Assembly: GCA_965214365.1 (NCBI GenBank)
Contig: CBDCBM010000004.1
Coordinates: 1,926,881-1,990,880 of the forward strand
Length of the DNA: 64,000 nucleotides
Source: Lichenihabitans sp.
Lineage (GTDB): Bacteria > Pseudomonadota > Alphaproteobacteria > Rhizobiales > Beijerinckiaceae
Direction: 5' to 3'
Part shown: one piece after another, positions 2 to 20,837 of the stretch
Position numbering within the stretch: the first letter of the stretch is position 1
Layout: every line of letters begins with the position of its first letter
The notes under the pieces: generated by a model
Seen by the model: only the letters and a program-made list of their open reading frames with translations
What the model was told of the DNA's origin: nothing
Database searches by the model: none
Program-made: the position numbers and the translations under genes

Positions 2-3000
2 ACCGTCGGCACCATCCACACCGGCAGCCTGACGATCAGCGCGGCGGCGGGCAACGAAGGCAGCGGCCAAGCGGTGCGATCGATCGCGGCGGCGGGCGCG
101 GGCGGTACCTATTTCGGCCTTGGCGCGGCGGTCTCCGACAGCACGGCCAGCAATTTGGTAACGGCCGGCCTGGGGTCCACCGTCGACCTTTCGGTTTCGG
201 GGATGACCCATACGGCGGCGACCAACGTCTCGGTGACGGCGACCGACACGTCGTCGGTCCGGGCGGATTCCTATGGTTTCGCGTTCGGGTCCGCTGCTAT
301 CGGAGCCTCGATTGCGCTGACGCAGCGCAACACGATCATCACCTCGGAGCTGACCGGAACCGCCAACGTTACGGCAACTACGGTCGCGGTCAACGCCTCC
401 AGCGGTGGCGAGAGCTGGGCCTATGCGCTCGGCGGAGCCGGCGGCATCTATTTCGCCGGTTCGGCCTCCGTTGCCACCTCGGACGACAATGCCAGCGTCA
501 CCTCGGACATCCACGACGGCGCCGTGGTGGCGGCCGGATCCGCGCATCCCAACAGCGTGACGGTCTCCGCCGCCGGGACGCCGGACTCGAAAGCCTTCGC
601 GTTCGGCGTGACGGTGGGCGGCGGCGGAGCGCTCGGCGCCTCCGTGGTGCTGGCGAGCGCGTCCCAGCATGTCCTCGCCACGGTCGACGCTGACGCCAAT
701 CTCATGGCCAGCAACGACCTTTCGATCCTCGCCATGGGCAGCGTGAACGGCCCGATCGCGTCGGACTTTCCCACCAATGTTCAGGTCCCTTCCAGCACGG
801 ACAGCTTCGAGACCGGGGGCGCTTCAGTGTCCGGCTGGGCGATCGCCGGCGCCGGCGCCATCCTGGTCGGCGCCCAAGCGACCGTGGCCGAGGCCTCCAA
901 CACCTCGGACGTCGAGGCGACGACCGGCACCAAGAAAAAGACTGCGAGCGACGGCACGCAATATGACGCCGGGCTGGCGCTGCCGATCGGCAACGTCACG
1001 ATCGAGGCCAACAATACGACGGCACAATTCGCGCGCGGCTACGGGGTCTCGGCGGCCGGCGTCGCGGCGATCGGGATCGTCATCGTTCGGACCGAATCGG
1101 ACACCACCACCACGGCGCAGGTCGGCGCCGGCGCCTATTCGACGAGCCTCGGCGCTCTGGCCAATGCCTCGGGTGCCGTGCAATCGCTCAACGTCCTGGC
1201 GACTGGCACCGATACCAGCAGCGCCCGCGCGCAGGCGGGCAGCGGCGGCATCATCGCGGGCAGCGGCGTCGACGGACGCACCATCGACAATTCGACGGTC
1301 CTGGCGGCGATCGGCAACAATGTCGGTATCGTGACCGGGGCCGTGACCGTGGCGGCGAGTCACACGATCAACTTCAAAGCCGACACGGATTCGGTCCAGG
1401 CCGCGCTGGTCGGCGCCAGCGGCGACTATTCCAGCGACACCGAAAACGCCACCGTGACGGTGCAGATCGGCAACGGCGCGAGCCTGACCTCGCTCGATCA
1501 GCTCGACGCCACGGGCGTCGTCTCGGCCCCGAACGCCCTCCTCATCACGGCGTCGAATATCTTCGACCGTATCGGAACGGGCGCGAGTTCCACGGGCGGC
1601 GCCGGCGGCGTCATCAGCGGCGCGGGCGCCAGCAACGATATCGAAGTCACCGGCTTCACGCATGTGCTGATCGGCGCCGACGCGCAACTGATCGACGGCA
1701 CGGGCGGCATCGCGCTCCTGGCGACGAGCGCCGCCAACGTCGCCGACAAGGTGGTGCTCACCACCGGCGGCGCCATCGCCGGGGCCGGGGTCAACGACAC
1801 CGTCAACGTGACGCTGAACAACGATGTGACCCTGGCGGATTCCGGCGCCGCCGATGCCCATCCCACGCTGATCTCGAGCCAAGGCACGGTCGCGCTCGCC
1901 ACGTCGGCGACCGGCAATGCGACCTCACAGGCGCTGGTCAGCACCTATGGCGCGGCGGTGGTTGGCGACGCGCAATCGCACGCCAATATCGCCGCGTATC
2001 AGACCGTGGCGGTGGGCAAATACGCCACGATCGTCGGCTTCGACGAAGTCGACGTGACGGCGGGATTGAACACGTCGGGCGGCACCTACGACATCACCAA
2101 CCTCAACGCCTACGCCGACGGCACCGCCAATGCCCAGGGGCTCATCGGCATTCCGGTGGCGCAGTCCTATTCGACCGCGCACAGCTATACCAATGTCAGC
2201 ATCGGAACCGGCGCGGCGGTCAATGGCGGCGGCAATGTCATCGTCGGCGCCTATCACGGAACGGCATCGAGCGGCGCCGATGGGACCGGCCACTACAACA
2301 TCCTCGGGGTTCCGGCCTCGAACCATTTCGAGCAGAGCAGCACCGACACGTCCGGCGACGTGAACATCAACGGCACGGTGACGGCCGGCATCTACCACGA
2401 CCAGGAAATTACCATCGATTGCGGCACCGGCGTCGCCTGTACGGCCGGCAGCACGCCCATCGTGCATGTGAAGCTCGGCGGCGCGGCCGTGACCGCCTCG
2501 GACGGGACGCTCAAGATCGACATCGCGCCGGGAACGTCGTCCGCGGCGACCAACGCTTCCTTCGGGACCCACAATTACAACCTCGCTGGTTACGTGTCGG
2601 GGATCATCACCGCGCAGGGGCTAAGTTCGAGCTCGGACGAGGCGACGCTGCTGAAGGCCGGTGTGCCGCAGGGTCTCACCAAGGTGGTGGTCCTCGGCCA
2701 GCTCTTCGCCGGGGGCGGCGTCGTCACCATCAACGCCGACACACTCGAAGGCGCGGGCACGGTGACCTCCTACGGCCATCCGACCATCGATGTCGTCAAC
2801 AATACGGCGGCCTCGCTGATCCTCCTCGACGGCGCCTATATCCCCGACCATCCGGCCAGCGAGGTGCTCTTCACCGGCAACGCCCACACGCCGCCGAGTT
2901 CGCTGCATGTCCTGATCGACCCCGGCTATAACGCCGCGACCTCGCCGCCCGAAGGCGTGACGATCACCCTCGCCTATAACGGCGCGGCGCAGAGTCTGTC

Positions 3001-6000
3001 GGACCCCACTACGGGTTCCAACCTGGGCGCATACGGGCCGGCCTTCATCAATGTCGGCGACATCTCGAACCTCGGCGGCCAGATCACGCTCACCAATGCG
3101 AAAGGCTGGTTCGCGCAATTCGGAGCGATCTCCGGCGCGGGCGTGACCGAGACCGCGCCCTATGGCGGGCTTGTCGTATCCTCGCCCAACCAGCCCTTCC
3201 AGGCCGGCGGCGACCCGTTCGCGGCCTGGTCGCATTTCGAGAACTATATCGGCAACGACGGCTCCAGCACCACCGGCTACAGCCTCAACCACGGCAGCGA
3301 CGGCAGTTACGCCAGTGGTACGACCGCCATCCCGGCCGAGGCCAACGTCGATGCCTTCCTCTACGTGGCCGCCAATCTCTATATCGCGGAGAACGATCCG
3401 AAACGATTTACAGGAATTTTTTTCGACACTATTCTTGGTGATAATTCTTTAGCCAACATTTTTGCCGGCACAAATATTCTGGATGGCCAACTCTATGGTC
3501 GATCCGACTATGGAGACCTTTCGGACAGTAACGGTGAGATTTTTACTCATCTCAACACGTCCTATGTCTTCCGGGACGATTGCGTCAGCAATGGATGCTA
3601 TGCAAATAGCAACGGCCTTGGCCCTTACGACGACACAAATGTCTATCTTTTGAATCCCAATAACCATGGCAATAGCCACGACGGCATACAATTCCAGTAT
3701 ATTCCGGTGGTAAGTTTGCCGGGATCCTACAATCTTCCATCATTAGGCATCAATACAGTGACCGGCACGGCTAGCTATATCGCTAGTGAAATCGTGAAAT
3801 CGAACAGCACGGCCATAAACGGCACCAATACGACCACCTACAATGCGGCGAACGGTTTCGAGCTGACGGCCAACGACTACAATCTGACCGGGCAGACGAC
3901 GGTATCGTCGAAAATCTTCGGCGGCCCCATTGCCATCAATGCCGCCATCATCGACATCAACGGTGCGATCACCTCCGGTCGGGACAATGACTATTCGTTG
4001 ACGATCGGGTCTTCGCTGGACACGCAACTCGCGGGCTACCGGCAGGCTTACCTCAACGGCACCGGCGCTGCGACCCGGACGCTCGATACCGGCAATTCCA
4101 ACATCACCGCCGTGTTCGACGCCGCCGACAACGTCATCAAGGTCAACGACATCATCGCCTCGACCGGTGCCGGCTTCGTGTCGCTGACCGGCAAGATCAT
4201 CAGCACAAACGCTCTGGCCCAAGGTCTCATCACGGTTCACGGCGGCCTCGGTCAGGTTACAATCAATAACCAGACGAATGTCGGCATCGTGATCGACAAC
4301 GTCGACAACGGCAGCGTGGAGAACGGCGCGGCGCTGACCAGCGAAGTCTTCATCCACGATCTGCTGAAGACCGGTGTCGCGGCCTACGATACCACGACCT
4401 ATCGCTATACGCCCGGCCAAGGGGTAGCGACCTACTATTCCAACGGCGGCGCCGCCTGGAACAGTACCGGCGCGGTGCTGAGCACGTCGACGACCGCATC
4501 GACCGTCACCTACAACCCTGTCGCCAACGCCCGCTATTACTGGGATCAGGAAGCGACGCTCGAGAAATACGATAACAACAGCTATGATACAGCCAACCCC
4601 TACGCGCCCTGGAAATTCACGACCGGCAATACATCCACGCCCTACACGCTGAAATCCTCCGGTGTGACGACCAGCGAGGTCAGTTCCAACCTCTTCCAGG
4701 AAACGATCACCGCGACATCGAGCTTCACGCCGCTCACTTATTACTACGAAGATTCCACCTCTTCGGTCGCCGACGGCGAAGGCTTCAAAGGCGTTTACTG
4801 GACTTATGACGTCGTCAACAAGGTCGACCTGATCCTGCACAACAGCGTCAAAGCCGACAATCAGTTCAACATCCAATTCCTCGGCAACGCCACATCGTTT
4901 CTCGACATCACGTCCGATACCGCGGTCGACCTTGCCGGCACCATCAACAATGCCAGCGGCACGACCAGCATCGTGGTCGCGGGCAATGCCGCCCCCGGCA
5001 ACAGCGACATCACCACCGCCTCGACGGCGCATGTGACGACGAAGAACCTGGTTCTGTCGACGCCTGGCGCCATCGGCAGCGTCGCGAGCCCCTTCACGGC
5101 CGCGATCAGCACCGGCGGCGTGGTGAAGGCCAGCGCGGGCGCCTCGGGCGTCAGCCTGGTGTTCACCGGCGCCGCCGCCATCGACAGCGTCTCAAGCCAG
5201 ACCACCACGAACGGCGCCACCACGTATGGCGACGTGTCGATCGCGGCGCAGGGGTCGATCACGGCGGCAGGCAAGCACATCCTCACCAGCCATGATTCCA
5301 CGGGCGCGCTCCAGACGAGCTTCGCGACGGCGGGCACCGTCACCACCGGCAGCGTGGTGATCGGCGGCGTGACGCTCGCCGGAATTTCGGTGAGTGACAC
5401 CAACATCACCGGCCGCAATGTGTCGCTCTCCAGCAACAGCGGCAGCATCGGCACAGGCTCAGCACCGCTCGTCATCAACGCCAACGCCACCGTCAACCCG
5501 GTGACGGGCGCCCTGGTCGACGGCACAATTCGGGCCATCGCCAACGGCGACATCGGCCTCACCGGCGTCGGCACGACGGCGTCGGCGCCGAGCAATTTCC
5601 GCATCGACCTCATCAAGGCGGGCGGCAACGTCACCATCAACGTGCCGAACGGCATCATCCTCGACGCCTCGGGCCAGACGTCGAGCCAGGTGCTGAGCAC
5701 CGACCAACTTGCCACCATCAAGCAGTCGCTCCATCTCACCGTCGCCACCGGCGCCAACCAGGGCGCGTCGGACAATGCAATCCGGCCCTTCGAGCAATCG
5801 GTCGATATCGCCTATGCAAACTACGAGAGCCTGCTGTCGAACGGCACGGTGAGCGGTGGCACGTTCACGCTGACGGCCGGCGGTATGCCGGCTTACGTGC
5901 AGACGGTGGCGTTGCAGAACGACACAGCCTATCAGACGCTGATCGGCTTCGGTTCGGTCGCCGGCGACGGCACATTCACGCTCAACTCCTTAGGCCTCGC

Positions 6001-9000
6001 CAATTATCGGGCGGCGGCCGCCGCCTCGCTCAACCTGTCGGCCACGACCGTCACCGACGCGCAGGTGCAAGTCTATGCCCAGGGCCTTTTCGCCTCGACG
6101 AGCGTCGATGTGCTCAAAGGGCTGGTCAACAACGGTCAGTTCTCGAATAGCGGCACCTTCACGCTGACGTCGACGGGTATCGCCACCTATCTGACGAAGG
6201 CGCTTCCCTCGATCAGCTCGGCAAACCAGAGCGCGGCCACGACCCTTCTGGCGAACAGCACCATCGCCACCGACGGCACATTCAGCCTCACCACCGCAGG
6301 CATCCAGACCTATCTGCCGCAAGCGATCGCCGGTTTGTCGACGACCGCGCAAGTCTCGGCCAATGCCCTGCTGTCGAACGGCACCGTCGGCTCGGACGGC
6401 AGCTTCACGCTCAGCGCGGCGGGGCTGCTGGCTTACGCGACCGCCGCCGCGACCGCCGACAATGTCACGACCGCGACCTCGACGCAGATCCAGGCTTACG
6501 CGTCCGGGCTCTACGCGACCCTGGTGCAGCAGACCCAGACCTTTGCGGGCGTCCAGTACAACACGCTGAACCTGAAAAGCGTACAGACCTACGCGCAGAC
6601 GCTCTATGCGAACACCAAGCCGAGCGATACCGCGATCCAGGCCTATGCATCGACGCAATATTCGAGCGACGTCAGTCTGTTCAAACAGGCCTTCGCAACT
6701 TCCACGGATACCGCAGGCGCAGGCTGGCAGACCGGGCTCGCCTCCGTGGCCCAGGCCCCGACCATCAATTACAAGGTCGCGACGAGCAGCACGCTCTACA
6801 CCACGCTGACACAGAACGGCGGCACGACGACCGCCTTCGAGGACAAGATCGGCACGGACTATACGAGCTACCAGACGCTGCTGGCCAACGGCCAAGTGTC
6901 GAACGGCTCCATTACCCTGACAAGCGCCGGCGTCGCCGCTCTGCGCCAGGCCGCGACCACGGGCGCGATCGCCGCCACCGACGCCCAGGTTCAGGCTTAC
7001 GCGCAGGCGCAATATGCCGCCGACGTGTCGGACTTCAAGCAGGCTTTCGCAACGACCTCCGATCCGACCGGCGCGCAGTGGCAGGCGGGGCTCGCCAATT
7101 CCGCCGCGACCTTCGTCTACCGCACGAGCGATGTCGCGAGCGGGACGATCGCCGCGACCCTGACCAATGGCGCTGTCTGGACCGATCAGCAACTCACGCT
7201 GGCGGTCGATCAATCGGCCGTGCAGCCGGCGGCGGCGCTGGTCGGCAATTCGGCGACGGCGAGTGTCGTCGGCCAGAACATCACGATCAACGCGGCCGGT
7301 GGCGTCGGCCAGGTCGCTCCGGCGGTCTTCGTGTCGAAGAGCGACCTTCTCGGCACCAGCACCGACCTTGCCACGAGTACCGGCATCGCCCGCATCGCCC
7401 AGGAGACGGCGGCCCTCGCGGTGGCGACGACGCCCGGCACGGTCGTGGCGCACTACGACGCGCAGAACAATCTCACCGGCTACAATGTCATCCTGACGTC
7501 GCCGCTGTTCGTCAGCGTGGTCGGCACCACGGCCACCAATGGCGTGACGACCACGACCGGAACCGTCAGCGCCAGCTCGGCGAATGGCGCGGTTTTACTG
7601 CAAGGCACCGCGCAGGGCGGTGCGGGTGGCGACACGTTGCGCATCGGTTCCATCGCGGCGCAGGGCGATGTGAACCTCGCCGCGCCGGTCAGCATCCTCG
7701 ATGGTGGCGTCTCCGTCGGGACACCTTCGATCTTCACAGGCGGCATACTTACGCTGCAGGCCGGAACAGGCAGCATCGGCTCCACGGCTGCGCCGGTGAC
7801 GTTCGAGGCGACGACCTCCATCAACGCCTCCGCCGCCCATGACGTCACCCTCAAATCCTACGGCGCCGTAACGGTCAGCCGCATCGGCGCCGATTCAGCG
7901 GCGGGCACCGCCTCGCTCCAGGCAATCAACCGGGTCGACGGCGGCGGGACCGTGGTGTCGGCCGGCTCGATCACAGGCGTCGCCGGAGCAGGCGGCCTCG
8001 CGGCGATCGTTCTGTCGGGGCATTCCCTGATTCTCAAGGCCGACAGCACCATCGGCTCGTCGGATCTGAGCCTCGCGGTGCGAACGATCGGGGGCGCCTT
8101 GTCGGGCTCGGCGGGAGGAGACGTCTACCTCGCGAGTCCGACCGTCGCGGGGGTTCTCTCACCATTGACCGTCAGCGGTTTCTCCGGGACTGGCAGCGTG
8201 ACTGTCACGGCCGACGCGGAACTCGATTTCACCGGCGCCACGTCGGCAACAGGTGCGCTCAACGCGACCGGTCATTCGATCTCAATGGGGCAGAACGCGT
8301 CGATCGCTGCTGGCAAAGCCGTCAACCTTACCACGACAGCGGGCGACATCTCCCTCGGGCAGGTGGTGAGCAGCGTCGGCACGACCCCCGCGATCTCGCT
8401 GAAAGCGACCGGCGGTGCGATCACAGGCAACGGCGACGGTCAGGTCAACCTCATCGCCGCCGCTTCGAGCGTATCCTTGACGGCCTCGACCGGGATCGGC
8501 ACCGCCGCGACATTGTCGGTCGCAGCACGACCGGTCACGCTCAATGCTGCGAGCCTCAGCGCCTCGACCTCCAGCGGTGGCATTCTCCTCGCCACGACGA
8601 CGACCCTGCCGTCCATCCTCGGTATCACGGCGGCGACGTCGCTCGACGCGACCTCGCTGACCGCGTCGAGCGGCACGGTCGGTATCATGGGAGTGGAAAG
8701 CCTTGCGCTCGACAGCGTGTCGGCGGCCACGCTGGCGGCGGGCTCCGCCGGCTCGATCCAGATCGGCACGGCAACGATCATGAACGCCGCGACCGTGAAC
8801 GCGGGAACGACGATCAATGTCGCGACATCGTTGAACTCCACGACGGGCAACGTGGCGCTGACCACGACCTCCGGCTCGATCACAGGCGGATCGGTCACGG
8901 CGAGCAATCTGTCGCTCAATTCCGGCAGCGCCATCGGCTCCAATAGCGCCGCTTTCGGTTTCACGCTGCGAACGGGCGGTATCCTGTCCGGGCAGGCCTC

Positions 9001-12000: not shown

Positions 12001-15000
12001 CCTCCATGCCCATGGGGCGGTGGATCTGACCACGATCACGGTGAATGGCGGCACGCTGGGCGTGACCTCGGACACTGGCACAGTGACGATCGGCACGGCG
12101 ACGAGCGGCCTGACGCAGACTCTGGAAGCGAATGGGGATCTTAACTTCCATGCCCTGACGACGACGGGGGCCACGTCCGACATCTCGCTGACCTCGACGC
12201 TGGGCGCGGTGGCGGGCCAGCCGGTGATGGTGAACGGCGCCTCCGTCCCATCCTCGATCGGCTCGGCGCGAGACGTCTTGGTCTCCGGCCTCAGCGTGAC
12301 GCTCGACGGTGTGACGGCGGCGCGCTCGGCCTCGATCGTCTCGACCGGCGGTTCGAACACAGGCGTCAATGTCACGGCGACGACCGGCACAGTGACCCTG
12401 TCGGCCGGCGCGACGCTGGACTGGACGACGGTATCGGCGCTGCAAGGCACGCTCACGGCCACGGCCGCCGACACGATCACGCTTGGCACCTCGACGACGG
12501 GCGGGTCGCAGGTGGTTCATGCAGCGAACGGGATCGGCTTCACGACGTTGACCACCAACGGCATCGCCAGCGATGCGGGCGACGTGACGCTGACCTCGGA
12601 TACGGGGTCGATCACCGGCGGGTCGATCGGCGCGCAGGGGTCGGCGGTGCTGACGGCGCTGACCACGATCACGGGAGCCTCCCTCACGACGACGACGGGG
12701 TCGATCGACGTCGAGACGGGCAGCCTGGCGGCGGGGACGGGCGGTCTCATCCACTGGACCGAGCTGTCGGCTGGCACGACGCTGACGGCCGTATCGGGCC
12801 AGGGCGCGATCACGCTCGGCACGGCGACGAGCGGGGCAGGGCAGACGATCCATGCCCATGGGGCCGTGGATCTGACCACCATCATGGCTAACGGCGGCAT
12901 GCTGGGCGTGACCTCGGACACCAGCACGGTGACCATCGGCACGGCGACGAGCGGCCTGACGCAGACGATCCTGGCCGCGCAAAATATCGTCTTTACGCAA
13001 TTGACCGTGTCGAGCGGCGACATCGCCGTCACCTCCGACACGGGCTCGATCAGGGGCGGCTCGATCATTGCGCAGGGTTCGGCCACACTGACATCGGCCC
13101 AGGACAATACCGGCGACAGCCTAACGACCCGCACCGGCGGCGCCATACTCAATGCCGGCGGCCAGATCAGCTGGACCAATCTCTTGGTCGGCACGACGCT
13201 CGGCGCGACCTCGATGGGCTCGACCGTGACTCTCGGTACTGCGACGAGCGGGGCTGGTCAGACCCTTCACGCCACGCAAAACATCGGCTTCACGCAATTG
13301 ACCGCGTCGAGCGGCGACATTGTCGTGACGTCGGACAATGGCTCGATCGTCGGCGGCTCGCTCACCGCCCAGGGCTCGGCCACGCTGATAGCGGCCCAGG
13401 ACAATACCGGCGACAGCCTAACGACCCGCACCGGCGGCGCCATACTCAATGCCGGCGGCCAGATCAGCTGGACCAATCTCTTGGTCGGCACGACGCTCGG
13501 CGCGACCTCGACGGGCTCGACCGTGACTCTCGGCACGGCGACGAGCGGGGCTGGTCAGACCCTTCACGCCACGCAAAACATTGGCTTCACGCAATTGACC
13601 GCGTCGAGCGGCGACATTGTCGTGACCTCGGATACGGGGTCGATCAGCGGCGGGTCGATCGGCGCGAACGGGTCGGCGATGCTGACCGCGCTGACCACGA
13701 TCACCGGGACCTCCCTCACGACGACAACGGGCGCGATTGACGTCGAGACCGGTCGCCTGGCGTCGGGCACGGGCGGTCTCATCCACTGGACCGCGCTGTC
13801 GGCTGGCACGACGCTGACGGCCGTCTCGGGTCAGGGTGCGATCACGCTCGGGACGGCGACGAGCGGCACTGTTTCGGGCAGCACGGGCACCCAGACCCTC
13901 CACGCCCATGGGGCGGTGGGGCTGACGACCGTTACGGCGAATGGCGGCACGCTGGGCGTGACCTCGGACACTGGCACAGTGACGATCGGCATGGCGACGA
14001 GCGCCCTGACGCAGACGATCCTGGCGCAGGGCGACCTTAACTTCCATGCCCTGACGACGACGGGGGCCACGGCCGACATTTTGCTCACCGCGACGCTTGG
14101 CGCGGTGGCGGGCCAGCCGGCGATGGTGAACGGCGCCTCCGTCCCATCCTCGATCGGTTCGTCGCGGGACGTCCTGGTCTCCGGCGTCAGCGTGACGCTC
14201 GACGGTGTGACGGCGGCACGCTCGGCCTCGATCGTCTCGACCGGCGGTTCGAACACAGGCACAAGCGTGACGGCGACGACCGGCGATGTGACCCTGTCGG
14301 CCGGCGCGACGCTGGACTGGACGACGGTATCGGCGCTGCAAGGCACGCTCACGGCCACGGCCGCCGACACGATCACGCTTGGCACCTCGACGACGGGCGG
14401 GTCGCAGGGGATTCATGCAGCGAACGGGGTTGGTTTTACGACGCTGACCACCCACGGGATCACGGGCGACGCGGGCGACGTGACGCTGACCTCGGATACG
14501 GGGTCGATCACCGGCGGGTCGATCGGCGCGCAGGGGTCGGCGGTGTTGACCGCGGTGACCACGATCACCGGGACCTCCCTCACGACCACGACGGGGTCGA
14601 TCGACGTCGAGACGGGCAGCCTGGCGTCGGGCAAGGGCGGTCTCATCCAATGGACCGCGCTGTCGGCCGGCACCACGCTCAAAGCGATCTCGGGCCAGGG
14701 CGCGATCACGCTCGGCACGGCGACGAGCGGCACTTTTGCGGGCAGCGTTGGCACGCAGACGATCCATGCCCATGGAGCCGTGGATCTGACCACCATCGTA
14801 GCCAACGGCGGCACGCTGGGCGTGACCTCGGACACTGGCACAGTGACCATTGGCACGGCGACGAGCGGCCTGACGCAGACGATCCTGGCCGCGCAAAATA
14901 TCGGCTTCACGCAATTGACCGCGTCGAGCGGCGACATTGCCGTCACCTCCGACACGGGCTCCATCACCGGTGGCTCGCTCACCGCCCAAGGCTCGGCCAC

Positions 15001-17395
15001 GCTGATAGCGGCCCTCGACAATACCGGCGACAGCCTGACGACCCGCACCGGCGGCGCCATACTCAATGCCGGCGGCCTGATCAACTGGACCAATCTCTTG
15101 GTCGGCACGACGCTCGGCGCGACCTCGACGGGCTCGACCGTGACTCTCGGCACGGCGACGAGCGGGGCTGGTCAGACCCTTCATGCCGCGCAAAACATCG
15201 ACTTCACGCAATTGACCGCGTCGAGCGGCGACATTGCCGTCACCTCCGACACGGGCTCCATCACCGGTGGCTCGCTCACCGCCCAGGGCTCGGCCACGCT
15301 GATAGCGGCCCTCGACAATACCGGCGACAGCCTAACGACCTGCACCGGCGCTGCGACAGTCAACGCCGGCGGCCTGATCCGGTGGACGACGATCTCCGCC
15401 GGCACGACGCTCGGCGCGACCTCGACAGGGTCGAGCATCACTCTCGGCACGGCGACGAGCGGAGCGGGGCAGACGATCCACGCCGCGCAAAACATCGCCT
15501 TCACGCAATTGACCGCGTCGAGCGGCGACATTGCCGTCACCTCCGACACGGGCTCCATCTCCGGTGGCTCGCTCACCGCCCAAGGCTCGGCCACGCTGAT
15601 AGCGGCCCTCGACAATACCGGCGACAGCCTGACGACCCGAACCGGCGCTGCGACACTCAACGCCGGCGGCCTGATCAGCTGGACCAATCTCTTGGTCGGC
15701 ACGACGCTGAACGCCATTTCGACAGGCTCGACCGTGAGCCTCGGCACGGCGACGAGCGGAGCGGGGCAGACGATCCACGCCGCGCAAAACATCGGCTTCA
15801 CGCAATTGACCGCGTCGAGCGGCGACATTGCCGTCACCTCCGACACGGGCTCCATCACCGGCGGTTCGCTCGACGCGCAGGGTTCGGCCACGCTGATAGC
15901 GGCACTCGACAATACCGGCGACAGCCTGACGACCCGCACCGGCGCTGCGACACTCAACGTCGGCGGCCGGATCAGCTGGACGACGGTCTCCGCCGGCACG
16001 ACGCTGAACGCCATTTCGACAGGCTCGACCGTGAGCCTCGGCACTGCGACGAGCGGGGCTGGTCAGACCCTTCACGCCGCGCAAAACATTGGCTTCACGC
16101 AATTGACCGCGTCGGGCGGCGACATTGTCGTGACGTCGGACAATGGTTCGATCGCCGGCGGTTCGCTCGACGCGCAGGGTTCGGCCACACTGACAGCGTC
16201 CGATGGGATCACCGGCCAGGATCTCATCGCGACGACGGGCTCGGCCACCCTGCTGGCGCACGGCGCGATCGACTGGCAGACGCTGTCGGCGGGCCGCAGC
16301 CTCGACGTCGTGTCGAGCGGGGACAGGATGAGCATCGGCACGGCGACGAGCGGCGGCAGTCAGCGGATCGGCGCCTTGGGCGACCTCACCTTCACTCATC
16401 TTGTGGCTCGGGGCATCGCCGGGGATCCGGGCGACGTGACGCTCGCAAGCCTCGCGGGGGATATTTTGGGCGGGGACATCGACGCGCATGGCTTCGCCGC
16501 CCTGTCGGCGCAGAACATCACCTTTGGGGCGCTCAACGCGCTCAAGGGCTTCACCATCACCTCGCCGGGTTCGGTGAAGGGCGCCAGCTTCTCGACCGAG
16601 GGGGCTGTCGTGCTCGACGCGCTGGGCGATGTGACGCTCGGCGCGGGCTCGTCCTCGAACCTCAACCTGAGTTCGCCCTCCTCCATCACGTTGACCTCGC
16701 TCAGCGCCAGCACGACGCTCAACCTCGAGGCGCCGACCATCTCCATCGGCACCCTGACCCAGGCGCCCGGCGTGAGCGGGCCGCTGCAGGTCAATATCAC
16801 TGGCTTTGGCGGTTCTTTGGGCACCAGCGCCACGATCTTCTTCGACGCGCCGAATGGGGTCGTCATCGGCAGCCTGCGCGAGACCGATGCCGCCTTCACC
16901 ACCAACGCCTCGAGTTTTTCGATCGCCCAGGGCTTCGTCGCCGACACGCTGTCGCTGAAGACCGCGACGCAATCGCTTTACATGAACAACGGCCTGTCGA
17001 CGCCTGTCGCCGGCTACGACGTGCAGCTCTTCGCGCTGGGCGACGCCTTCAGCCTGTCGACGGCCGGGCGCGGCACCTTCACCGACGCCTATGTGGTGCA
17101 ATATGCGACCGACATGGCGATCCAGGAGACGCTGTTCGGCCAGCTCTTCCCCGGCGGCAGCCTGACCCGCGACCTCGACCGCCAGTCCCATGCGGGCGAC
17201 GATCTCAGCTTCGACGCGCTCGACCCGACCGGCAAACCGGCGAGCTGGCGCTTCTCCCCCGGCGCCTTCGACGCCTATCTCAAAGGCATCGACCGGGGCG
17301 CCATCGGGACTTCGCCGGACCAGCCGGCCGTCAACACCGGTCCGGTGGTGGTCGGCTCCAACACGAATGGGCAGCAATTGCGGATCGGGCCGTGA
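2..17395 (+). CDS. Giant TpsA-type filamentous adhesin/haemagglutinin-like exoprotein (LktA/FHA-like beta-helical repeats), 5'-truncated by the window edge
   Basis: The ORF track gives 74..17395 (5773 aa), but the frame is open from position 2 (TVGTIHTGSLTISAAAGNEGSGQAVRS...), so the true start is upstream. The protein is G/A/S/T/V-rich with beta-helix-like repeats and lies directly upstream of a TpsB transporter. The signal peptide and TPS domain are not visible. Confidence 0.88.
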   Translation, partial: TVGTIHTGSLTISAAAGNEGSGQAVRSIAAAGAGGTYFGLGAAVSDSTASNLVTAGLGSTVDLSVSGMTHTAATNVSVTATDTSSVRADSYGFAFGSAAIGASIALTQRNTIITSELTGTANVTATTVAVNASSGGESWAYALGGAGGIYFAGSASVATSDDNASVTSDIHDGAVVAAGSAHPNSVTVSAAGTPDSKAFAFGVTVGGGGALGASVVLASASQHVLATVDADANLMASNDLSILAMGSVNGPIASDFPTNVQVPSSTDSFETGGASVSGWAIAGAGAILVGAQATVAEASNTSDVEATTGTKKKTASDGTQYDAGLALPIGNVTIEANNTTAQFARGYGVSAAGVAAIGIVIVRTESDTTTTAQVGAGAYSTSLGALANASGAVQSLNVLATGTDTSSARAQAGSGGIIAGSGVDGRTIDNSTVLAAIGNNVGIVTGAVTVAASHTINFKADTDSVQAALVGASGDYSSDTENATVTVQIGNGASLTSLDQLDATGVVSAPNALLITASNIFDRIGTGASSTGGAGGVISGAGASNDIEVTGFTHVLIGADAQLIDGTGGIALLATSAANVADKVVLTTGGAIAGAGVNDTVNVTLNNDVTLADSGAADAHPTLISSQGTVALATSATGNATSQALVSTYGAAVVGDAQSHANIAAYQTVAVGKYATIVGFDEVDVTAGLNTSGGTYDITNLNAYADGTANAQGLIGIPVAQSYSTAHSYTNVSIGTGAAVNGGGNVIVGAYHGTASSGADGTGHYNILGVPASNHFEQSSTDTSGDVNINGTVTAGIYHDQEITIDCGTGVACTAGSTPIVHVKLGGAAVTASDGTLKIDIAPGTSSAATNASFGTHNYNLAGYVSGIITAQGLSSSSDEATLLKAGVPQGLTKVVVLGQLFAGGGVVTINADTLEGAGTVTSYGHPTIDVVNNTAASLILLDGAYIPDHPASEVLFTGNAHTPPSSLHVLIDPGYNAATSPPEGVTITLAYNGAAQSLSDPTTGSNLGAYGPAFINVGDISNLGGQITLTNAKGWFAQFGAISGAGVTETAPYGGLVVSSPNQPFQAGGDPFAAWSHFENYIGNDGSSTTGYSLNHGSDGSYASGTTAIPAEANVDAFLYVAANLYIAENDPKRFTGIFFDTILGDNSLANIFAGTNILDGQLYGRSDYGDLSDSNGEIFTHLNTSYVFRDDCVSNGCYANSNGLGPYDDTNVYLLNPNNHGNSHDGIQFQYIPVVSLPGSYNLPSLGINTVTGTASYIASEIVKSNSTAINGTNTTTYNAANGFELTANDYNLTGQTTVSSKIFGGPIAINAAIIDINGAITSGRDNDYSLTIGSSLDTQLAGYRQAYLNGTGAATRTLDTGNSNITAVFDAADNVIKVNDIIASTGAGFVSLTGKIISTNALAQGLITVHGGLGQVTINNQTNVGIVIDNVDNGSVENGAALTSEVFIHDLLKTGVAAYDTTTYRYTPGQGVATYYSNGGAAWNSTGAVLSTSTTASTVTYNPVANARYYWDQEATLEKYDNNSYDTANPYAPWKFTTGNTSTPYTLKSSGVTTSEVSSNLFQETITATSSFTPLTYYYEDSTSSVADGEGFKGVYWTYDVVNKVDLILHNSVKADNQFNIQFLGNATSFLDITSDTAVDLAGTINNASGTTSIVVAGNAAPGNSDITTASTAHVTTKNLVLSTPGAIGSVASPFTAAISTGGVVKASAGASGVSLVFTGAAAIDSVSSQTTTNGATTYGDVSIAAQGSITAAGKHILTSHDSTGALQTSFATAGTVTTGSVVIGGVTLAGISVSDTNITGRNVSLSSNSGSIGTGSAPLVINANATVNPVTGALVDGTIRAIANGDIGLTGVGTTASAPSNFRIDLIKAGGNVTINVPNGIILDASGQTSSQVLSTDQLATIKQSLHLTVATGANQGASDNAIRPFEQSVDIAYANYESLLSNGTVSGGTFTLTAGGMPAYVQTVALQNDTAYQTLIGFGSVAGDGTFTLNSLGLANYRAAAAASLNLSATTVTDAQVQVYAQGLFASTSVDVLKGLVNNGQFSNSGTFTLTSTGIATYLTKALPSISSANQSAATTLLANSTIATDGTFSLTTAGIQTYLPQAIAGLSTTAQVSANALLSNGTVGSDGSFTLSAAGLLAYATAAATADNVTTATSTQIQAYASGLYATLVQQTQTFAGVQYNTLNLKSVQTYAQTLYANTKPSDTAIQAYASTQYSSDVSLFKQAFATSTDTAGAGWQTGLASVAQAPTINYKVATSSTLYTTLTQNGGTTTAFEDKIGTDYTSYQTLLANGQVSNGSITLTSAGVAALRQAATTGAIAATDAQVQAYAQAQYAADVSDFKQAFATTSDPTGAQWQAGLANSAATFVYRTSDVASGTIAATLTNGAVWTDQQLTLAVDQSAVQPAAALVGNSATASVVGQNITINAAGGVGQVAPAVFVSKSDLLGTSTDLATSTGIARIAQETAALAVATTPGTVVAHYDAQNNLTGYNVILTSPLFVSVVGTTATNGVTTTTGTVSASSANGAVLLQGTAQGGAGGDTLRIGSIAAQGDVNLAAPVSILDGGVSVGTPSIFTGGILTLQAGTGSIGSTAAPVTFEATTSINASAAHDVTLKSYGAVTVSRIGADSAAGTASLQAINRVDGGGTVVSAGSITGVAGAGGLAAIVLSGHSLILKADSTIGSSDLSLAVRTIGGALSGSAGGDVYLASPTVAGVLSPLTVSGFSGTGSVTVTADAELDFTGATSATGALNATGHSISMGQNASIAAGKAVNLTTTAGDISLGQVVSSVGTTPAISLKATGGAITGNGDGQVNLIAAASSVSLTASTGIGTAATLSVAARPVTLNAASLSASTSSGGILLATTTTLPSILGITAATSLDATSLTASSGTVGIMGVESLALDSVSAATLAAGSAGSIQIGTATIMNAATVNAGTTINVATSLNSTTGNVALTTTSGSITGGSVTASNLSLNSGSAIGSNSAAFGFTLRTGGILSGQASGFAKLAGTGDVAVSTLSSSGDLSLTSSVVLDIASSSSVAGLVSSTGGSVTLRGNSITMGAGAGVSASGSATLSAAGNIVLGQIKSTSAATSSAVINIEAGAASLGVPVTSGTGSISSNGDGQTNIFGTAAGVGATLNAGVSVGSVSVAIAEIAATADTGNITLVQKAALHATSLTASQGGVDVEGVQALTLDSATAGTTFTAKSTSGAITLGTVASVGPQHIDASGSINFHSLTTTGAAADIGLTSTSGAVKGTSTTLNAVTTLSSIGSARDVTVSGLSVALDGVTAARSALIASTGGSNTGASVTATTGTVTLSAGGTALSNGALTPLSGATLNWASVSAMTGTLTATADDTLTLRTVTTGGSQTIHAANTLSFTTLTTNGIAGDAGNVTLTSDAGSIAGGSIDAHGSAHLTTATLNSGQSVTAATGDTFIEGGTAVSWSIIQATLGNATVKADAGNLSVTSVSAGQTASLTATAGSILPVGSSSSLSSSNLVLTALDDVGVAGTGNGSPTPFGFTLGAGGTLSGAAGGSAWLLGTGDVAINRFSADAGLSLVTAGGITIKSVTGTLNGVTTTTTGLVSSLNGGVALRGNLITMQTGAGVSAGGSVSLSADGDITLGQVKSTSANTSAAVIDIEAGAATFGAPVTSGTGSILSNGDGQTNILDGVARTGAVLNAGDGVGSVSVAIAHLAADAGNGNITLVQKADVQATSLIALHGSVDVEGANALTLDGVTAGTAFIAKSTASTITIGTATSGLTQTILAQGDLDFHALTTTGVTADISLTSTLGAVAGQPVMVNGASIPSSIGSSRDVLVSGLSVTLDGVTAARSALIASTGGSNIGVNVTATTGTVTLSAGTTLDWTRVSALQGTLTATSADTITLGTSTTGGSQGIHAANGVSFTTLTTHGITGDAGDVTLTSDAGSIAGGSIGANGSAVLTALTTITGASLTTTTGSIDIETGSLASGTGGLIQWTELTAGTTLKTISGQGAITLGTATSGAGQTLHAHGAVDLTTITVNGGTLGVTSDTGTVTIGTATSGLTQTLEANGDLNFHALTTTGATSDISLTSTLGAVAGQPVMVNGASVPSSIGSARDVLVSGLSVTLDGVTAARSASIVSTGGSNTGVNVTATTGTVTLSAGATLDWTTVSALQGTLTATAADTITLGTSTTGGSQVVHAANGIGFTTLTTNGIASDAGDVTLTSDTGSITGGSIGAQGSAVLTALTTITGASLTTTTGSIDVETGSLAAGTGGLIHWTELSAGTTLTAVSGQGAITLGTATSGAGQTIHAHGAVDLTTIMANGGMLGVTSDTSTVTIGTATSGLTQTILAAQNIVFTQLTVSSGDIAVTSDTGSIRGGSIIAQGSATLTSAQDNTGDSLTTRTGGAILNAGGQISWTNLLVGTTLGATSMGSTVTLGTATSGAGQTLHATQNIGFTQLTASSGDIVVTSDNGSIVGGSLTAQGSATLIAAQDNTGDSLTTRTGGAILNAGGQISWTNLLVGTTLGATSTGSTVTLGTATSGAGQTLHATQNIGFTQLTASSGDIVVTSDTGSISGGSIGANGSAMLTALTTITGTSLTTTTGAIDVETGRLASGTGGLIHWTALSAGTTLTAVSGQGAITLGTATSGTVSGSTGTQTLHAHGAVGLTTVTANGGTLGVTSDTGTVTIGMATSALTQTILAQGDLNFHALTTTGATADILLTATLGAVAGQPAMVNGASVPSSIGSSRDVLVSGVSVTLDGVTAARSASIVSTGGSNTGTSVTATTGDVTLSAGATLDWTTVSALQGTLTATAADTITLGTSTTGGSQGIHAANGVGFTTLTTHGITGDAGDVTLTSDTGSITGGSIGAQGSAVLTAVTTITGTSLTTTTGSIDVETGSLASGKGGLIQWTALSAGTTLKAISGQGAITLGTATSGTFAGSVGTQTIHAHGAVDLTTIVANGGTLGVTSDTGTVTIGTATSGLTQTILAAQNIGFTQLTASSGDIAVTSDTGSITGGSLTAQGSATLIAALDNTGDSLTTRTGGAILNAGGLINWTNLLVGTTLGATSTGSTVTLGTATSGAGQTLHAAQNIDFTQLTASSGDIAVTSDTGSITGGSLTAQGSATLIAALDNTGDSLTTCTGAATVNAGGLIRWTTISAGTTLGATSTGSSITLGTATSGAGQTIHAAQNIAFTQLTASSGDIAVTSDTGSISGGSLTAQGSATLIAALDNTGDSLTTRTGAATLNAGGLISWTNLLVGTTLNAISTGSTVSLGTATSGAGQTIHAAQNIGFTQLTASSGDIAVTSDTGSITGGSLDAQGSATLIAALDNTGDSLTTRTGAATLNVGGRISWTTVSAGTTLNAISTGSTVSLGTATSGAGQTLHAAQNIGFTQLTASGGDIVVTSDNGSIAGGSLDAQGSATLTASDGITGQDLIATTGSATLLAHGAIDWQTLSAGRSLDVVSSGDRMSIGTATSGGSQRIGALGDLTFTHLVARGIAGDPGDVTLASLAGDILGGDIDAHGFAALSAQNITFGALNALKGFTITSPGSVKGASFSTEGAVVLDALGDVTLGAGSSSNLNLSSPSSITLTSLSASTTLNLEAPTISIGTLTQAPGVSGPLQVNITGFGGSLGTSATIFFDAPNGVVIGSLRETDAAFTTNASSFSIAQGFVADTLSLKTATQSLYMNNGLSTPVAGYDVQLFALGDAFSLSTAGRGTFTDAYVVQYATDMAIQETLFGQLFPGGSLTRDLDRQSHAGDDLSFDALDPTGKPASWRFSPGAFDAYLKGIDRGAIGTSPDQPAVNTGPVVVGSNTNGQQLRIGP
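5820..7100 (+). repeat. Coding repeats with an (L)xNGxxxxxGTFTLTxxG hairpin plus a YAQ/FKQAFAT helical motif inside the adhesin
   Basis: About six imperfect copies, e.g. LLSNGTVSGGTFTLTAGG, VNNGQFSNSGTFTLTSTG, LANSTIATDGTFSLTTAG, LLSNGTVGSDGSFTLSAAG. There are also two copies of DVSxFKQAFATxxDxxGAxWQxGLA. Confidence 0.75.
8940..11700 (+). repeat. Older diverged internal duplication, offset 1611 bp (537 aa)
   Basis: The anchor agcaa(c/t)ggcga (SNGDGQTN) occurs at 9350 and 10961. The flanking peptides FGFTLxxGGxLSG and VLGQ(I/V)KSTSAxTSxAVIxIEAGAA are shared between the copies. Confidence 0.8.
11250..14850 (+). repeat. Module A (~846 bp, 282 aa), three near-identical copies
   Basis: The anchor gcgcctcc(a/g)tcccatcctcgatcgg (GASxPSSIGS) occurs at 11391, 12237 and 14133. 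The first spacing is 846 bp. Module boundaries are approximate. Confidence 0.8.
12940..13700 (+). repeat. Module B (297 bp, 99 aa) tandem array, 3 copies (last one partial)
   Basis: The anchor gcaattgacc occurs at 12997, 13294 and 13591, with an exact 297-bp period. Confidence 0.88.
14850..16300 (+). repeat. Module B (297 bp, 99 aa) tandem array, 5 copies
   Basis: The anchor gcaattgacc occurs at 14911, 15208, 15505, 15802 and 16099, with an exact 297-bp period. Unit: QNIxFTQLTASSGDIAVTSDTGSITGGSLTAQGSATLIAALDNTGDSLTTRTG...TLGTATSGAGQT. Confidence 0.92.
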
Positions 17396-17552
17396 GACTC
17401 GGACTTTTAGTTAAACACGCTTGACGATTTTTGATGCCGGCCCGGTTTCCCTCGGGCGGACATGGATTAGAGTGGAACCTCAGTCGATGGTGCGTGGCGT
17501 ACCCGTGATCAAACCCGCGGCCTTATGTGAATCAGCGTGTGTCGGCAGCGAC

Positions 17553-19229
17553 ATGACACACGCCAGTGTCCTGATCCTGCTGTGCGCCGCCTTTATCATT
17601 CCGGCGTCGGTTGCCCATGCCCAGTCGGCTCCGCCGTCCGTGCCTCCGCGCATCGTCGATCCGGGGCTCATCGAACAGCAGAACCGGCGCAACCAGATCG
17701 AGATCGAGCAGCGCTCGGCGCCCGAGCTTTCGGGGCCGCCGGTGGTGGCGCCGAAGGCCAATCCCGCCGTCGTGGCGGCGCCGGGTGGCCCGACCTTCCT
17801 GTTGAAACAGGTGGTCTTCGATGCCTCGACGTTCCTGACGCGCCACGAGCTCGAGGCGCTGGCGGCCCCGCTCATCGGCCGCAGGATCGACATCGCCACG
17901 GTGCAGCGCCTCGTCAAATCGATCAACGACATCTATGCGGCGCGCCAGATCGCCACGGCGGCCGCCTATCTGCCGCCGCAGGATCTGAAGGCCGGCACCT
18001 TGCGGATCGGCATCGTCGAGGGGCGGCTCGGCAGGGTCGTGGTCAAGGGCAATGCGGCGCTGTCGGTGGATTTCCTCAAGGACCGGATCTCGGTCGAGCC
18101 GGGCCAGGTGGTGGACACCGGGGCGCTGGCCGACGATGTGGCGCGGTTCAACAAGACCGGCGTCGCGCAGATCCAGGCCTTCCTGCAGCCGGGCGCGCAA
18201 TTCGGCCTCACCGACATCGGGCTCGGCGTCGTCGAACCGCCCACCAACGCGCTGCAGCTTTTCGTCGACAATCAGGGCGTCAGCTCGGTGGGGCGGCTCG
18301 AGGGCGGCATGCTGTTCCAGCGCTACGCGCCGCTCGGCCTCGACGATAAGCTCACGGTCTACGCGGTGAAGTCGGAGGGCGACATCTCGGGCAACGTCGG
18401 CTACAACCTGCCCTTCGACACGCTGGGCGGGCGCGTCGGCGCCTCTTTTACGCGCGGCCATATTCACATCGTCAACGGGCCCTTCGTGCCGCTTGACATC
18501 GACGGCGACAGCACCTCGAGCGCCCTCAACTTGAGCCATCCTGTCTTCGTCGACCAGGAGTGGCTGCTGCTGGGCCTCGCTTCGCTGTCCTATGGCAAGT
18601 CGACCTCGCAGCAATCGAAAGTGTCGATCACCAACAACGACACGCTCAAGGGTACGGCGGGGTTCACGCTCGGCTATGCGGGGCAGGCCTTCACGGCGAG
18701 CGCGACGCCGACTTTTTCGCGCGCCCACACCGAGTTCCAGGTGACCAACGCGCGGACCGACTTCACCCTCTACGGCGGCACCTATTCGGCCTCCTACCGG
18801 CTGCCGGCCGAGTTTCTGGCCACGCTCGGGGGCGCCTTCCAGGTGGCGAACCGCGCCCTGATCCCCGGCGACAGCCTGTTCCAGGTCGGCGGTCCGACGA
18901 CGGTGCGCGGCTATCCGACGGATGCGCTGGCCGGCCCGACGGGCTATTACGGCAATCTCGAACTCCATCACGGGCTCGACGGGGTCGGCGAGACGATCGG
19001 CGCGCCGCCCTGGTTCCGCACCATCGACGCCTTCGCGTTCTACGACCGGGGCGCGGTCTATAATCCCTCCCCGAAGGCCGTGACGCTGAACTCCATGGGC
19101 GTCGGCCTGTCGGACGCCCTCACCAAATCCGTGCTAGCGGAGATCTCGGCCGGCTTCCCGATCAACGACGCGGTTCCCCGCCAGCCGGGCTACGCTCTCT
19201 ACTTCCGCCTCACGGCGAAGTTCGAATGA
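17553..19229 (+). CDS. TpsB (ShlB/FhaC/HecB family) outer-membrane two-partner secretion transporter
   Basis: From ATG 17553 (ORF track 17421) there is a signal peptide ending AHA-Q, a POTRA-like segment (LLKQVVFDAST...AYLPPQDLKAGTLRIGIVEG), a beta-barrel with the conserved VRGY motif (GGPTTVRGYP) and an aromatic C-terminus (YFRLTAKFE). Confidence 0.92.
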   Translation: MTHASVLILLCAAFIIPASVAHAQSAPPSVPPRIVDPGLIEQQNRRNQIEIEQRSAPELSGPPVVAPKANPAVVAAPGGPTFLLKQVVFDASTFLTRHELEALAAPLIGRRIDIATVQRLVKSINDIYAARQIATAAAYLPPQDLKAGTLRIGIVEGRLGRVVVKGNAALSVDFLKDRISVEPGQVVDTGALADDVARFNKTGVAQIQAFLQPGAQFGLTDIGLGVVEPPTNALQLFVDNQGVSSVGRLEGGMLFQRYAPLGLDDKLTVYAVKSEGDISGNVGYNLPFDTLGGRVGASFTRGHIHIVNGPFVPLDIDGDSTSSALNLSHPVFVDQEWLLLGLASLSYGKSTSQQSKVSITNNDTLKGTAGFTLGYAGQAFTASATPTFSRAHTEFQVTNARTDFTLYGGTYSASYRLPAEFLATLGGAFQVANRALIPGDSLFQVGGPTTVRGYPTDALAGPTGYYGNLELHHGLDGVGETIGAPPWFRTIDAFAFYDRGAVYNPSPKAVTLNSMGVGLSDALTKSVLAEISAGFPINDAVPRQPGYALYFRLTAKFE

Positions 19230-19313
19230 CCAGAGCCCGTCGCCCGGGGGCGAACAGGCTCCGACGCCAAAGCGGCCCCCTTGGTGGTCGCCCCACAAAC
19301 CCGAGGATTATCC

Positions 19314-20048
19314 ATGGCCGACGCACCGCTTTTCTACGATAGCGTGACCCCCCTCAACCGCGAGCGGCATCGCGACCTCAAGCTGGCGGTGCCGGACAAG
19401 CCGTTCGGCTTTGCGGCGGGGGCGCATATGATCCCGGCCCTGGCGGAAGAGTTCGGCGCTGCGGCGCGGCATCTGCCGATCCTGTTCCTGCCGGGCGCGA
19501 GCCAGCCGAGCCCGGTCTTCCTGGTCGGCCTGCGGCCGGGCCGCAACGGCTTCGTCAACGAGGACGGCGCCTGGTCGGCGGGCTACCTGCCAGCCTATCT
19601 GCGCCGCTATCCCTTCATCATCGGCGAGATGGAGGGCGCCGAGCCGCTGATCTGCCTCGATGAGGGTTCGGACCGGCTCTCGCGCGAGGCGGGGCGGCCC
19701 TTCTTCGCCCAGGACGGCACCGACACGCCGCTCCTCGCCGAGATCGTCAAGCTCACCGGCGACTACTTGAACGCCGCCAAGCGGACCGAGGCCTTGATGG
19801 TGGCGCTCCAGACGCACGACCTTCTGCGCCCCATCACCATCGAGGCGCGGCCGAGCGACCCTTCGGCTGGCGGCAACACGTCGAGTGCCGTGATGCACGG
19901 CCTCCTGGCCCTCGACGAACACAAGCTCAACGCTCTGCCCGACGACCAAATCCTCGACCTCAGACGCCAGGGTTTTCTCGGCCCCCTCTACGCCCACCTC
20001 ATCAGCCTCGCATCCGTCGATCGATTGAGGGAGAGCAACCCATCATAG
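19314..20048 (+). CDS. SapC family protein
   Basis: Shine-Dalgarno gagga precedes ATG 19314. Motifs PLFY..VTPLN.ERH, EEF..AARHLPILF, YLPAYLRRYPF and LDE.KL..L......L...G.LG.LYAHLISL match SapC-family proteins as I know them. Confidence 0.85.
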   Translation: MADAPLFYDSVTPLNRERHRDLKLAVPDKPFGFAAGAHMIPALAEEFGAAARHLPILFLPGASQPSPVFLVGLRPGRNGFVNEDGAWSAGYLPAYLRRYPFIIGEMEGAEPLICLDEGSDRLSREAGRPFFAQDGTDTPLLAEIVKLTGDYLNAAKRTEALMVALQTHDLLRPITIEARPSDPSAGGNTSSAVMHGLLALDEHKLNALPDDQILDLRRQGFLGPLYAHLISLASVDRLRESNPS

Positions 20049-20199
20049 GACAGTACCTGAAGCTCTCGAAGCAAAGAGAGAGGTAATTGAACCGGGAAAT
20101 CAACTTATCTCGTGTCAACAGCCGATTGGTTGCTATGTGATTGGGGAAAGACCTACCGAATGTTAGACAGAAATAGCGATTAATCTCAGCGCCAGAATA

Positions 20200-20815: not shown

Positions 20816-20837
20816 CCGATTGCGGACCTTGAAAGGC

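Follow-up and report, generated by a model that had tools for sequence, protein, structure and literature searches.

We have analysed 64,000 nucleotides of the genome of Lichenihabitans sp. (contig CBDCBM010000004.1; G000:C4:1926881-1990880 in our numbering, hereafter the window), in which tpsA, a giant adhesin gene of a two-partner secretion (TPS, type Vb) system, is followed by the transporter gene tpsB and by sapC, a gene of the SapC family. One lineage of SapC is linked to giant exoproteins in a recurrent, non-random and facultative manner. SapC genes lie beside giant genes in several gene orders and beside several classes of cargo, and TPS systems of the same subfamily also occur in genomes devoid of SapC. 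The reading that we favour, with a probability of roughly 0.55, is that SapC is co-expressed with tpsA and tpsB and, before the giant cargo is exported, acts on it in the cytoplasm, as an optional helper that giants of other export routes share. In what follows, genomes and loci of the survey carry G and L numbers, respectively.

The tpsA, tpsB and sapC genes form one co-oriented block

The block comprises four elements (window coordinates).

2..17395, forward strand: tpsA, C-terminal 5,797 codons, a single frame that is open at the 5' end of the window
17553..19229, forward strand: tpsB, Omp85-type outer membrane transporter of 558 aa, with POTRA_2 and ShlB domains
19230..19313, forward strand: tpsB-sapC spacer of 84 bp, with a GAGGA ribosome-binding site 7 nt ahead of the sapC ATG
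19314..20048, forward strand: sapC, protein of 244 aa matching PF07277 (209.2 bits vs a cut-off of 28.9)

The window cuts the adhesin gene, whose ATG lies at G000:C4:1916571; 10.4 kb of tpsA precede the window start. Based on its reading frame in the genome, the full gene spans about 27.7 kb and encodes a product of 9,234 aa, the longest open reading frame (ORF) of the 5.1-Mb, four-contig genome. The TpsA N-terminus has a Sec-type signal peptide (...LLPVALVISGHSASAQA), recognised by reading the sequence rather than with a predictor. The secretion domain behind it matched the NCBIfam model NF012204 (leukotoxin LktA family filamentous adhesin, adhes_FxxPxG) with 163 bits, the curated cut-off being 60. 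The match to the Pfam TPS model PF05860 was slightly below the cut-off (E 6.5e-8, 33.2 vs 33.5 bits), and the NPNG-type model TIGR01901 gave only 19 bits. The tpsB gene starts 157 bp downstream on the same strand, with an in-frame ATG at 17489 as an alternative start. Its product carries a signal peptide (MTHASVLILLCAAFIIPASVAHA) and matched POTRA_2 (58 bits, E 6e-16) and ShlB (53.5 bits, E 3e-14), both above the cut-offs. A TPS domain behind a Sec signal peptide, encoded next to an Omp85-type barrel with POTRA, is the arrangement of type Vb secretion, and by its domain matches the predicted pair is a member of the LktA-type subfamily.

The SapC match to PF07277 is full-length (model positions 1-220 of 220). 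Read by eye, the protein shows neither a hydrophobic signal segment at its N-terminus (MADAPLFYDSVTPLNRERHRDLKL) nor a membrane segment. The genome holds one SapC gene and one ShlB-type gene, which are each other's neighbours. No terminator-like site was detected in the spacer between them. An inverted repeat, GAGCC...GGCTC, is present at ~19234-19261 and has no U-tract; we rejected it as a meaningful structure, with the spacer folding no better than shuffled sequences (z = 0.25).

These data confirm in full what a preliminary description of the window had reported, namely three co-oriented genes separated by 157 and 84 bp, the hairpin lacking a U-tract, a SapC devoid of signal peptide, and a block ending at an AT-rich stretch and an insertion sequence (IS) remnant (see below). 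That description had also given the adhesin gene as longer than 17 kb. The giant ORF is real, and the one correction concerns its length, the window boundary having truncated the gene.

SapC genes recur beside giant genes in shuffled orders

SapC homologues were aligned, and the 80 loci that matched best were retrieved with flanks of 10 kb, allowing each species a single genome. The six-frame ORFs of these loci were searched with profiles for TpsB and for the TPS domain that had been derived from the window, and large ORFs were listed. In 13 of the 14 loci nearest to the window SapC, a TpsB and/or an ORF of at least 2,500 codons (or an ORF running off the end of the locus) was found directly beside SapC. 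The remaining locus lies 1.5 kb from a contig end. Seven SapC loci were followed out into whole genomes for gene order and giant size, with the following outcome.

tpsB-tpsA-sapC: Methylobacterium alsaeris (~5,560 aa) and a Gallionella metagenome-assembled genome (MAG; ~6,020 aa)
tpsB<>tpsA-sapC: M. nonmethylotrophicum (~8,880 aa)
sapC-tpsA-tpsB: a Mesorhizobium MAG (~6,350 aa) and a Rhizobiaceae MAG (~6,440 aa)
sapC<>tpsA-tpsB: a Caulobacteraceae MAG (~7,660 aa)
giant-sapC: Aquabacter cavernae (~8,690 aa), with no TpsB in the genome

The arrangement of the window, tpsA-tpsB-sapC, was also seen in Fulvimarina and a Boseaceae bacterium, among others, and in G298, a genome from another genus of the window's family, where TpsA has 4,636 aa. 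This brings to five the gene orders with TpsB seen across the SapC-linked loci. Measured partners had ~5,560, 6,020, 6,350, 6,440, 7,660, 8,690, 8,880 and, in the window, 9,234 aa. Among six close metagenomic SapC homologues, the four with 50-55% identity showed tpsB followed by sapC at gaps of 29-70 bp, and in L169 and L171 a giant gene also lay upstream of tpsB (4,690+ and 7,012 aa).

Two side observations concern these loci. Between the 7,012-aa giant gene and tpsB-sapC, L171 has two Pfam-less ORFs of 709 and 582 aa (L171:4260-8137), which may be additional components of that system. L126 and L139, from two ~2 Mb genomes of one genus, encode, in this order, TpsB, an NPXG-type TpsA of only ~1,300 aa and SapC; thus, the SapC linkage is not strictly confined to giants.

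The same association was seen when starting from the adhesin. We have searched a first sample, 401 genomes drawn evenly from the phylum, for NF012204. Five genomes, including that of the window, exceeded the cut-off; the matching ORFs have 5,437-9,272 codons. By coordinates, a SapC gene adjoins the LktA-type tpsA/tpsB pair in all five, and fetched loci confirmed two of them.

A maximum-likelihood tree of 143 SapC sequences placed the window SapC in a clade with a support of 100 in the Shimodaira-Hasegawa-like approximate likelihood ratio test (SH-aLRT). After the later loci were added, this clade had 22 members (SH-aLRT 98), with 19 in a giant/TPS context, two in neither and one that could not be judged. 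On the SapC tree the giant/TPS label required 15 changes, and branches with good support force no fewer than 10 of these. The mean for shuffled labels was 30 changes, and none of 500 shuffles came as low as 15. Thus, the association belongs to particular SapC clades, yet has been gained or lost many times.

The linkage follows giant cargo of several export classes

The proteins encoded beside SapC fell into distinct classes, three of which are defined by sequence models or motifs.

LktA-type TPS giants (NF012204 match): window, L008, L010, L012, L014, L017
NPXG-type TPS proteins: both Methylobacterium loci, Gallionella, L056, L072, L126, L139
Giants with the LEPR-XLL motif (NF012209): Aquabacter, L054, L060, L074, L090, L102, L107

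The Aquabacter SapC is a member of the window's own SapC clade and flanks an 8,690-aa LEPR-XLL protein. Some of the SapC-linked giants bear RTX or PKD/cadherin-like repeats, and the C-terminus of a Rahnella giant beside SapC resembles an autotransporter-type barrel (...IGIKYSW), as judged by eye and not by a family search. No ShlB-type gene was found in the Aquabacter, Pelagimonas and Paracoccaceae genomes that have a SapC-flanked giant. The diversity of cargo, together with these genomes lacking ShlB, indicates that SapC tracks giant exported cargo and not the TpsB machine. A C-terminal module shared by the giants was considered as the SapC target and rejected, given that only the TPS-type C-termini were related among those compared. 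The hosts of SapC-giant loci include Alpha-, Beta- and Gammaproteobacteria, Desulfobacterota and an acidobacterial MAG (Vicinamibacteraceae).

SapC is neither required by TPS systems nor specific to them

Several results weigh against the reading of SapC as a helper of giant cargo, and we have gathered them here. In a second sample, 401 genomes of the class searched for NF012204, we found five further LktA-type TpsA genes, each with an adjacent TpsB. No SapC was seen in the flanks of these five loci (none of the three informative ones). Four of the genomes (G450, G680, G687 and G771) have the LktA-type TpsA and TpsB and no SapC at all, one of these SapC-less TpsA proteins reaching 7,440 aa. 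The fifth, G460, has a SapC of another clade on a different contig. A genome with an NPXG-type TpsA of 5,797 aa was equally devoid of SapC. Genomes with an LktA-type TpsA but no SapC are of small size, 1.2-3.5 Mb. An obligate partnership between SapC and LktA-type TPS, suggested by the first sample, was thereby overturned by the second.

The wider family and the protein itself add to these points. The two closest of the six metagenomic SapC homologues (69% and 66% identity) had no giant gene within 5-10 kb; the first stood between mnmG and an MscS channel gene, the second between an SDR gene and a GT2 glycosyltransferase gene. We have also drawn 60 SapC loci from the phylum sample, one per genome. 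Ten were labelled giant/TPS, a label that for L099 rests only on a cut ORF of 1,227 aa, and the other 50 (~85%) lay in other contexts. Searches for a relative that would suggest an activity gave nothing: the SapC model described below had no match in the PDB or among the viral models of BFVD with Foldseek (best E 0.13, template modelling (TM) score <= 0.2), and a profile of 93 SapC sequences found nothing among PDB sequences (best E 0.085). A guess based on Cupin_8 neighbours, that SapC might be cupin- or oxygenase-like, was supported by neither search. Finally, considering the low-GC flank and the IS remnant around the block, part of the linkage could reflect joint transfer.

The same data bear on whether SapC could be a dedicated, TPS-specific chaperone or modifier, i.e., the third component defining a three-gene type Vb subtype. 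The tpsB-sapC arrangement with gaps of 29-84 bp, which is found in the window, L009, L019, L020, L169-L172, L105, L092 and L165, would be expected of such a component, and so would the presence of SapC beside all five LktA-type TpsA genes of the phylum sample. We nevertheless consider this explanation very improbable. A SapC of the window clade flanks the LEPR-XLL protein of Aquabacter in a genome without ShlB, other SapC clades accompany LEPR-XLL/RTX giants and the apparent autotransporter, and four LktA-type TPS systems are encoded in genomes without SapC. Moreover, SapC has no signal peptide and would therefore be unable to meet TpsB or a periplasmic intermediate.

The preliminary description had proposed SapC as an accessory component of an under-described TPS subtype and had suggested a neighbourhood survey of its homologues. 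A recurrent link is supported (19 of 22 clade members, all five LktA-type genes of the first sample, 13 of the 14 nearest loci), whereas exclusivity to TPS and necessity for it are not, most SapC genes of the phylum sample being found elsewhere. The author of the proposal had regarded close homologues in unrelated contexts as refuting it, and in the homologues with 69% and 66% identity this is partly borne out. A three-component subtype is thus the wrong label for an arrangement in which SapC is optional and not TPS-specific.

Conserved residues of SapC and the contexts of the wider family

We have modelled the SapC structure with AlphaFold2 from the 93-sequence alignment. The predicted protein is a compact, globular, single-domain alpha/beta fold (predicted local distance difference test (pLDDT) 95, predicted TM score (pTM) 0.90). 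Residues E46, F58, P93, A94, R97, R98, P100, F131 and S231 are invariant across the 93 sequences, and all of them are present in the window SapC; H19, C114, D116 and H228 are near-invariant. The polar or charged residues in this set are E46, R97, R98 and S231, to which the four near-invariant ones are added. The alignment mixes SapC sequences from giant-protein loci and from unrelated loci, and the conserved residues are common to both. Because the conserved polar residues are also kept in SapC of unrelated loci, a generic chaperone surface seems to us somewhat less likely than a defined site for binding or catalysis. SapC would then be a cytoplasmic protein with one conserved putative binding or catalytic site, whose specificity is probably tuned by clade.

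SapC was found in 128 of the 401 phylum genomes (32%), often in several copies. The commonest among the 98 immediate neighbours of the SapC genes in other contexts were FAD-linked oxidases (10), tryptophan-halogenase-like proteins (8), TonB-dependent receptors (6), formylglutamate amidohydrolases (6), Cupin_8 proteins (4) and TolC-like OEP proteins (4). Two sets recur among loci L087-L146: one of four genes, encoding a TonB-dependent receptor, a Trp-halogenase-like protein, a Cupin_8 protein and SapC, and another in which SapC is accompanied by an FAD-linked oxidase and an N-formylglutamate amidohydrolase. In a study of Colwellia, a "SapC-like" gene is mentioned that lies upstream of one for a halogenase and shares its region with a gene for a TonB-dependent receptor. 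Our searches of the literature on SapC together with TPS, hemagglutinin or halogenase found no paper tying SapC to TPS or giant adhesins, and the SapC-TPS link is not described in the literature searched.

These contexts would also suit a different role, in which SapC is a small-molecule-binding or regulatory protein for envelope functions that would control how the adjacent surface system is expressed or released, without touching the cargo polypeptide. Such a role would cover the loci with TonB-receptor, halogenase and Cupin_8 genes and account for invariant polar residues common to these and to giant-protein loci. It is also compatible with the compact globular fold predicted and with a multi-copy family lying mostly beside outer-membrane and enzyme genes. 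On the other hand, neither the model nor the profile searches pointed to a domain for DNA binding or known signalling, SapC has no known ligand or partner, and regulators are rarely retained downstream in the operon of a 28-kb structural gene. We therefore regard this role as unlikely, if less so than a TPS-specific one.

The TpsA body and the flanks of the block

No Pfam family was found on the 5,797 in-window residues of TpsA or on its last 699, and segments of the TpsA body retrieved only scattered relatives with phmmer. Its C-terminal third contains tandem repeats of 297 nt (99 aa), near-identical, at 12929-13660 and 14843-16353, with copies 85-89% identical to one another. The copy number of such repeats probably varies, and short-read assemblies are prone to break in them; a number of related loci stop at contig edges within repeat-bearing genes of this kind. 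Between 3000 and 5000 the GC content inside tpsA falls to 0.55-0.59 (0.66-0.69 elsewhere) while the frame remains open, and the peptide encoded there has a high content of N, D and Y and no repeats. A weak terminator-like hairpin at 17385-17402 (5 pairs, then ACTTTTAGTT) overlaps the tpsA stop ahead of tpsB and might attenuate read-through into tpsB-sapC. Terminator-like sites across the region were fewer than expected from shuffles.

Downstream of sapC, the block is bounded by the following features.

20049..20280, no strand: AT-richer non-coding stretch closing the block, GC falling to 0.59 past 20048
~20400..20830, forward strand: IS630-like transposase remnant, truncated and with two in-frame stops, seen in read-through translation
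20838..22574, reverse strand: pgi (glucose-6-phosphate isomerase; PF00342, E 8e-193), the convergent backbone gene bounding the block

The IS630-like remnant is single-copy in the genome. Only the read-through frame gave matches, to HTH_33 (E 1.6e-4) and to DDE_3 (E 2e-5), neither of which reaches its Pfam cut-off; the stop-to-stop ORFs gave no Pfam match. Upstream of tpsA lies ~11 kb of low-GC DNA (0.47-0.62; G000:C4:1905000-1916500, locus L147), which ends ~1.5 kb before the gene. It encodes a methyltransferase, a DegT aminotransferase, a GT2 and an MBOAT protein (polysaccharide modification), together with a LuxR/sigma-r4-like helix-turn-helix protein and an AraC-family regulator with a DJ-1/PfpI domain.

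The low-GC DNA upstream and the IS remnant downstream suggest that the TPS block sits in acquired DNA. The SapC/TPS block itself looks laterally acquired as well, since relatives from the window's own family, L102 (G244) and L107 (G400), pair a SapC of another clade with LEPR-XLL giants and not with TPS. Both flanks are also what one would expect if the linkage had no functional meaning, with sapC being carried as a passenger by mobile islands of giant adhesins or lying here by chance. That the nearest SapC homologues stand alone, and that several TPS-bearing genomes have no SapC, would fit this explanation too. A passenger, however, is difficult to reconcile with five different gene orders, with at least four cargo or secretion classes and with hosts spanning several phyla. 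The SapC tree likewise combines at least 10 forced changes of context with strong clustering. From the ~8 ORFs of at least 2,000 aa in this 5.1-Mb genome, we estimate that a random gene would lie within 5 kb of such an ORF in only ~1-3% of cases. We thus judge a meaningless linkage quite improbable.

Proposed role of SapC

In the role that we favour, that of an optional helper of giant cargo, TpsA would be a repetitive fibre of 9,234 aa, exported by Sec and then moved through the outer membrane via TpsB. The sapC gene is probably carried on the same transcript as tpsA and tpsB. Its product, predicted to be cytoplasmic and a member of a SapC lineage that has specialised in accompanying giant exported repeat proteins, probably acts on the giant cargo in the cytoplasm before export, and not on the TpsB pore. 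SapC might hold, target or modify the chain; it could be a holdase or targeting factor, an enzyme, or a ligand-binding regulator. TPS as such does not need it, and it would also be recruited by giants of other routes, namely one apparent autotransporter and the LEPR-XLL/RTX proteins, for which type I export is presumed.

We put forward a broader proposal only tentatively, and doubt it somewhat more than we believe it. This SapC lineage could represent a hitherto unrecognised, fold-novel class of cytoplasmic factors devoted to repetitive exoproteins of 5,000-9,000 aa. Cargo of type Vb, type Va and type I-like routes would have recruited it repeatedly and independently, and it would solve a problem shared by giant polypeptides that arises before export, be it export competence, targeting or modification.

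Little is understood of the way in which bacteria produce and export single chains of 5,000-9,000 residues. SapC is found in about a third of the sampled Pseudomonadota genomes, with no assigned function and no structural relative in the searches that we have run. A link between SapC and giant proteins that is independent of the export route provides the first testable functional context for the family, and points to a cargo-side step missing from current secretion models.

Comparison with known systems

The window pair resembles Bordetella FhaB/FhaC and Serratia ShlA/ShlB in encoding, side by side, a POTRA-bearing Omp85-type TpsB and a TpsA that is exported by Sec and carries a TPS domain at its N-terminus. 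It differs from them in the 9,234 aa of TpsA, in the match below the Pfam TPS cut-off and in the attached gene for a predicted cytoplasmic SapC.

The lktBAC operon of Fusobacterium necrophorum is similar in its NF012204 secretion domain, in the adjacent ShlB-type TpsB and in a small third gene of unknown function. LktA has roughly 3,200 aa; the window TpsA is about three times longer and alphaproteobacterial, and the likeness implies no toxin activity. LktC is much smaller than the 244-aa window SapC, a PF07277 protein.

A precedent for a cytoplasmic product of a third gene, acting on the TpsA cargo ahead of its export, is provided by HMW1A/HMW1B/HMW1C of Haemophilus influenzae. HMW1C is a glycosyltransferase of known fold, whereas the SapC model matches no glycosyltransferase or other solved structure. 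The known helpers of TPS systems are few and comprise HMW1C, CdiC-type acyltransferases and immunity proteins.

The only published export context of SapC found in the searched literature is the type I/S-layer locus sapCDEF of Campylobacter. In C. fetus and C. rectus, a SapC-family gene lies beside the export genes and the genes of the large S-layer proteins that these export; this locus is the source of the family name, and the role of SapC there is also unknown (10.1101/2024.07.26.605372). Export follows the type I route (SapDEF) in Campylobacter and type Vb in the window, where the neighbours of the sapC gene are tpsB, the IS remnant and pgi, and no genes for an ATP-binding cassette transporter, a membrane-fusion protein or a TolC-like outer-membrane factor adjoin it.

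A parallel outside TPS is offered by the LEPR-XLL giants (NF012209, "LEPR-8K"). They have no TPS domain, lack a TpsB in three of the host genomes and presumably use another export route; as with the giant TpsA, SapC is encoded directly beside them, the measured example being the 8,690-aa protein.

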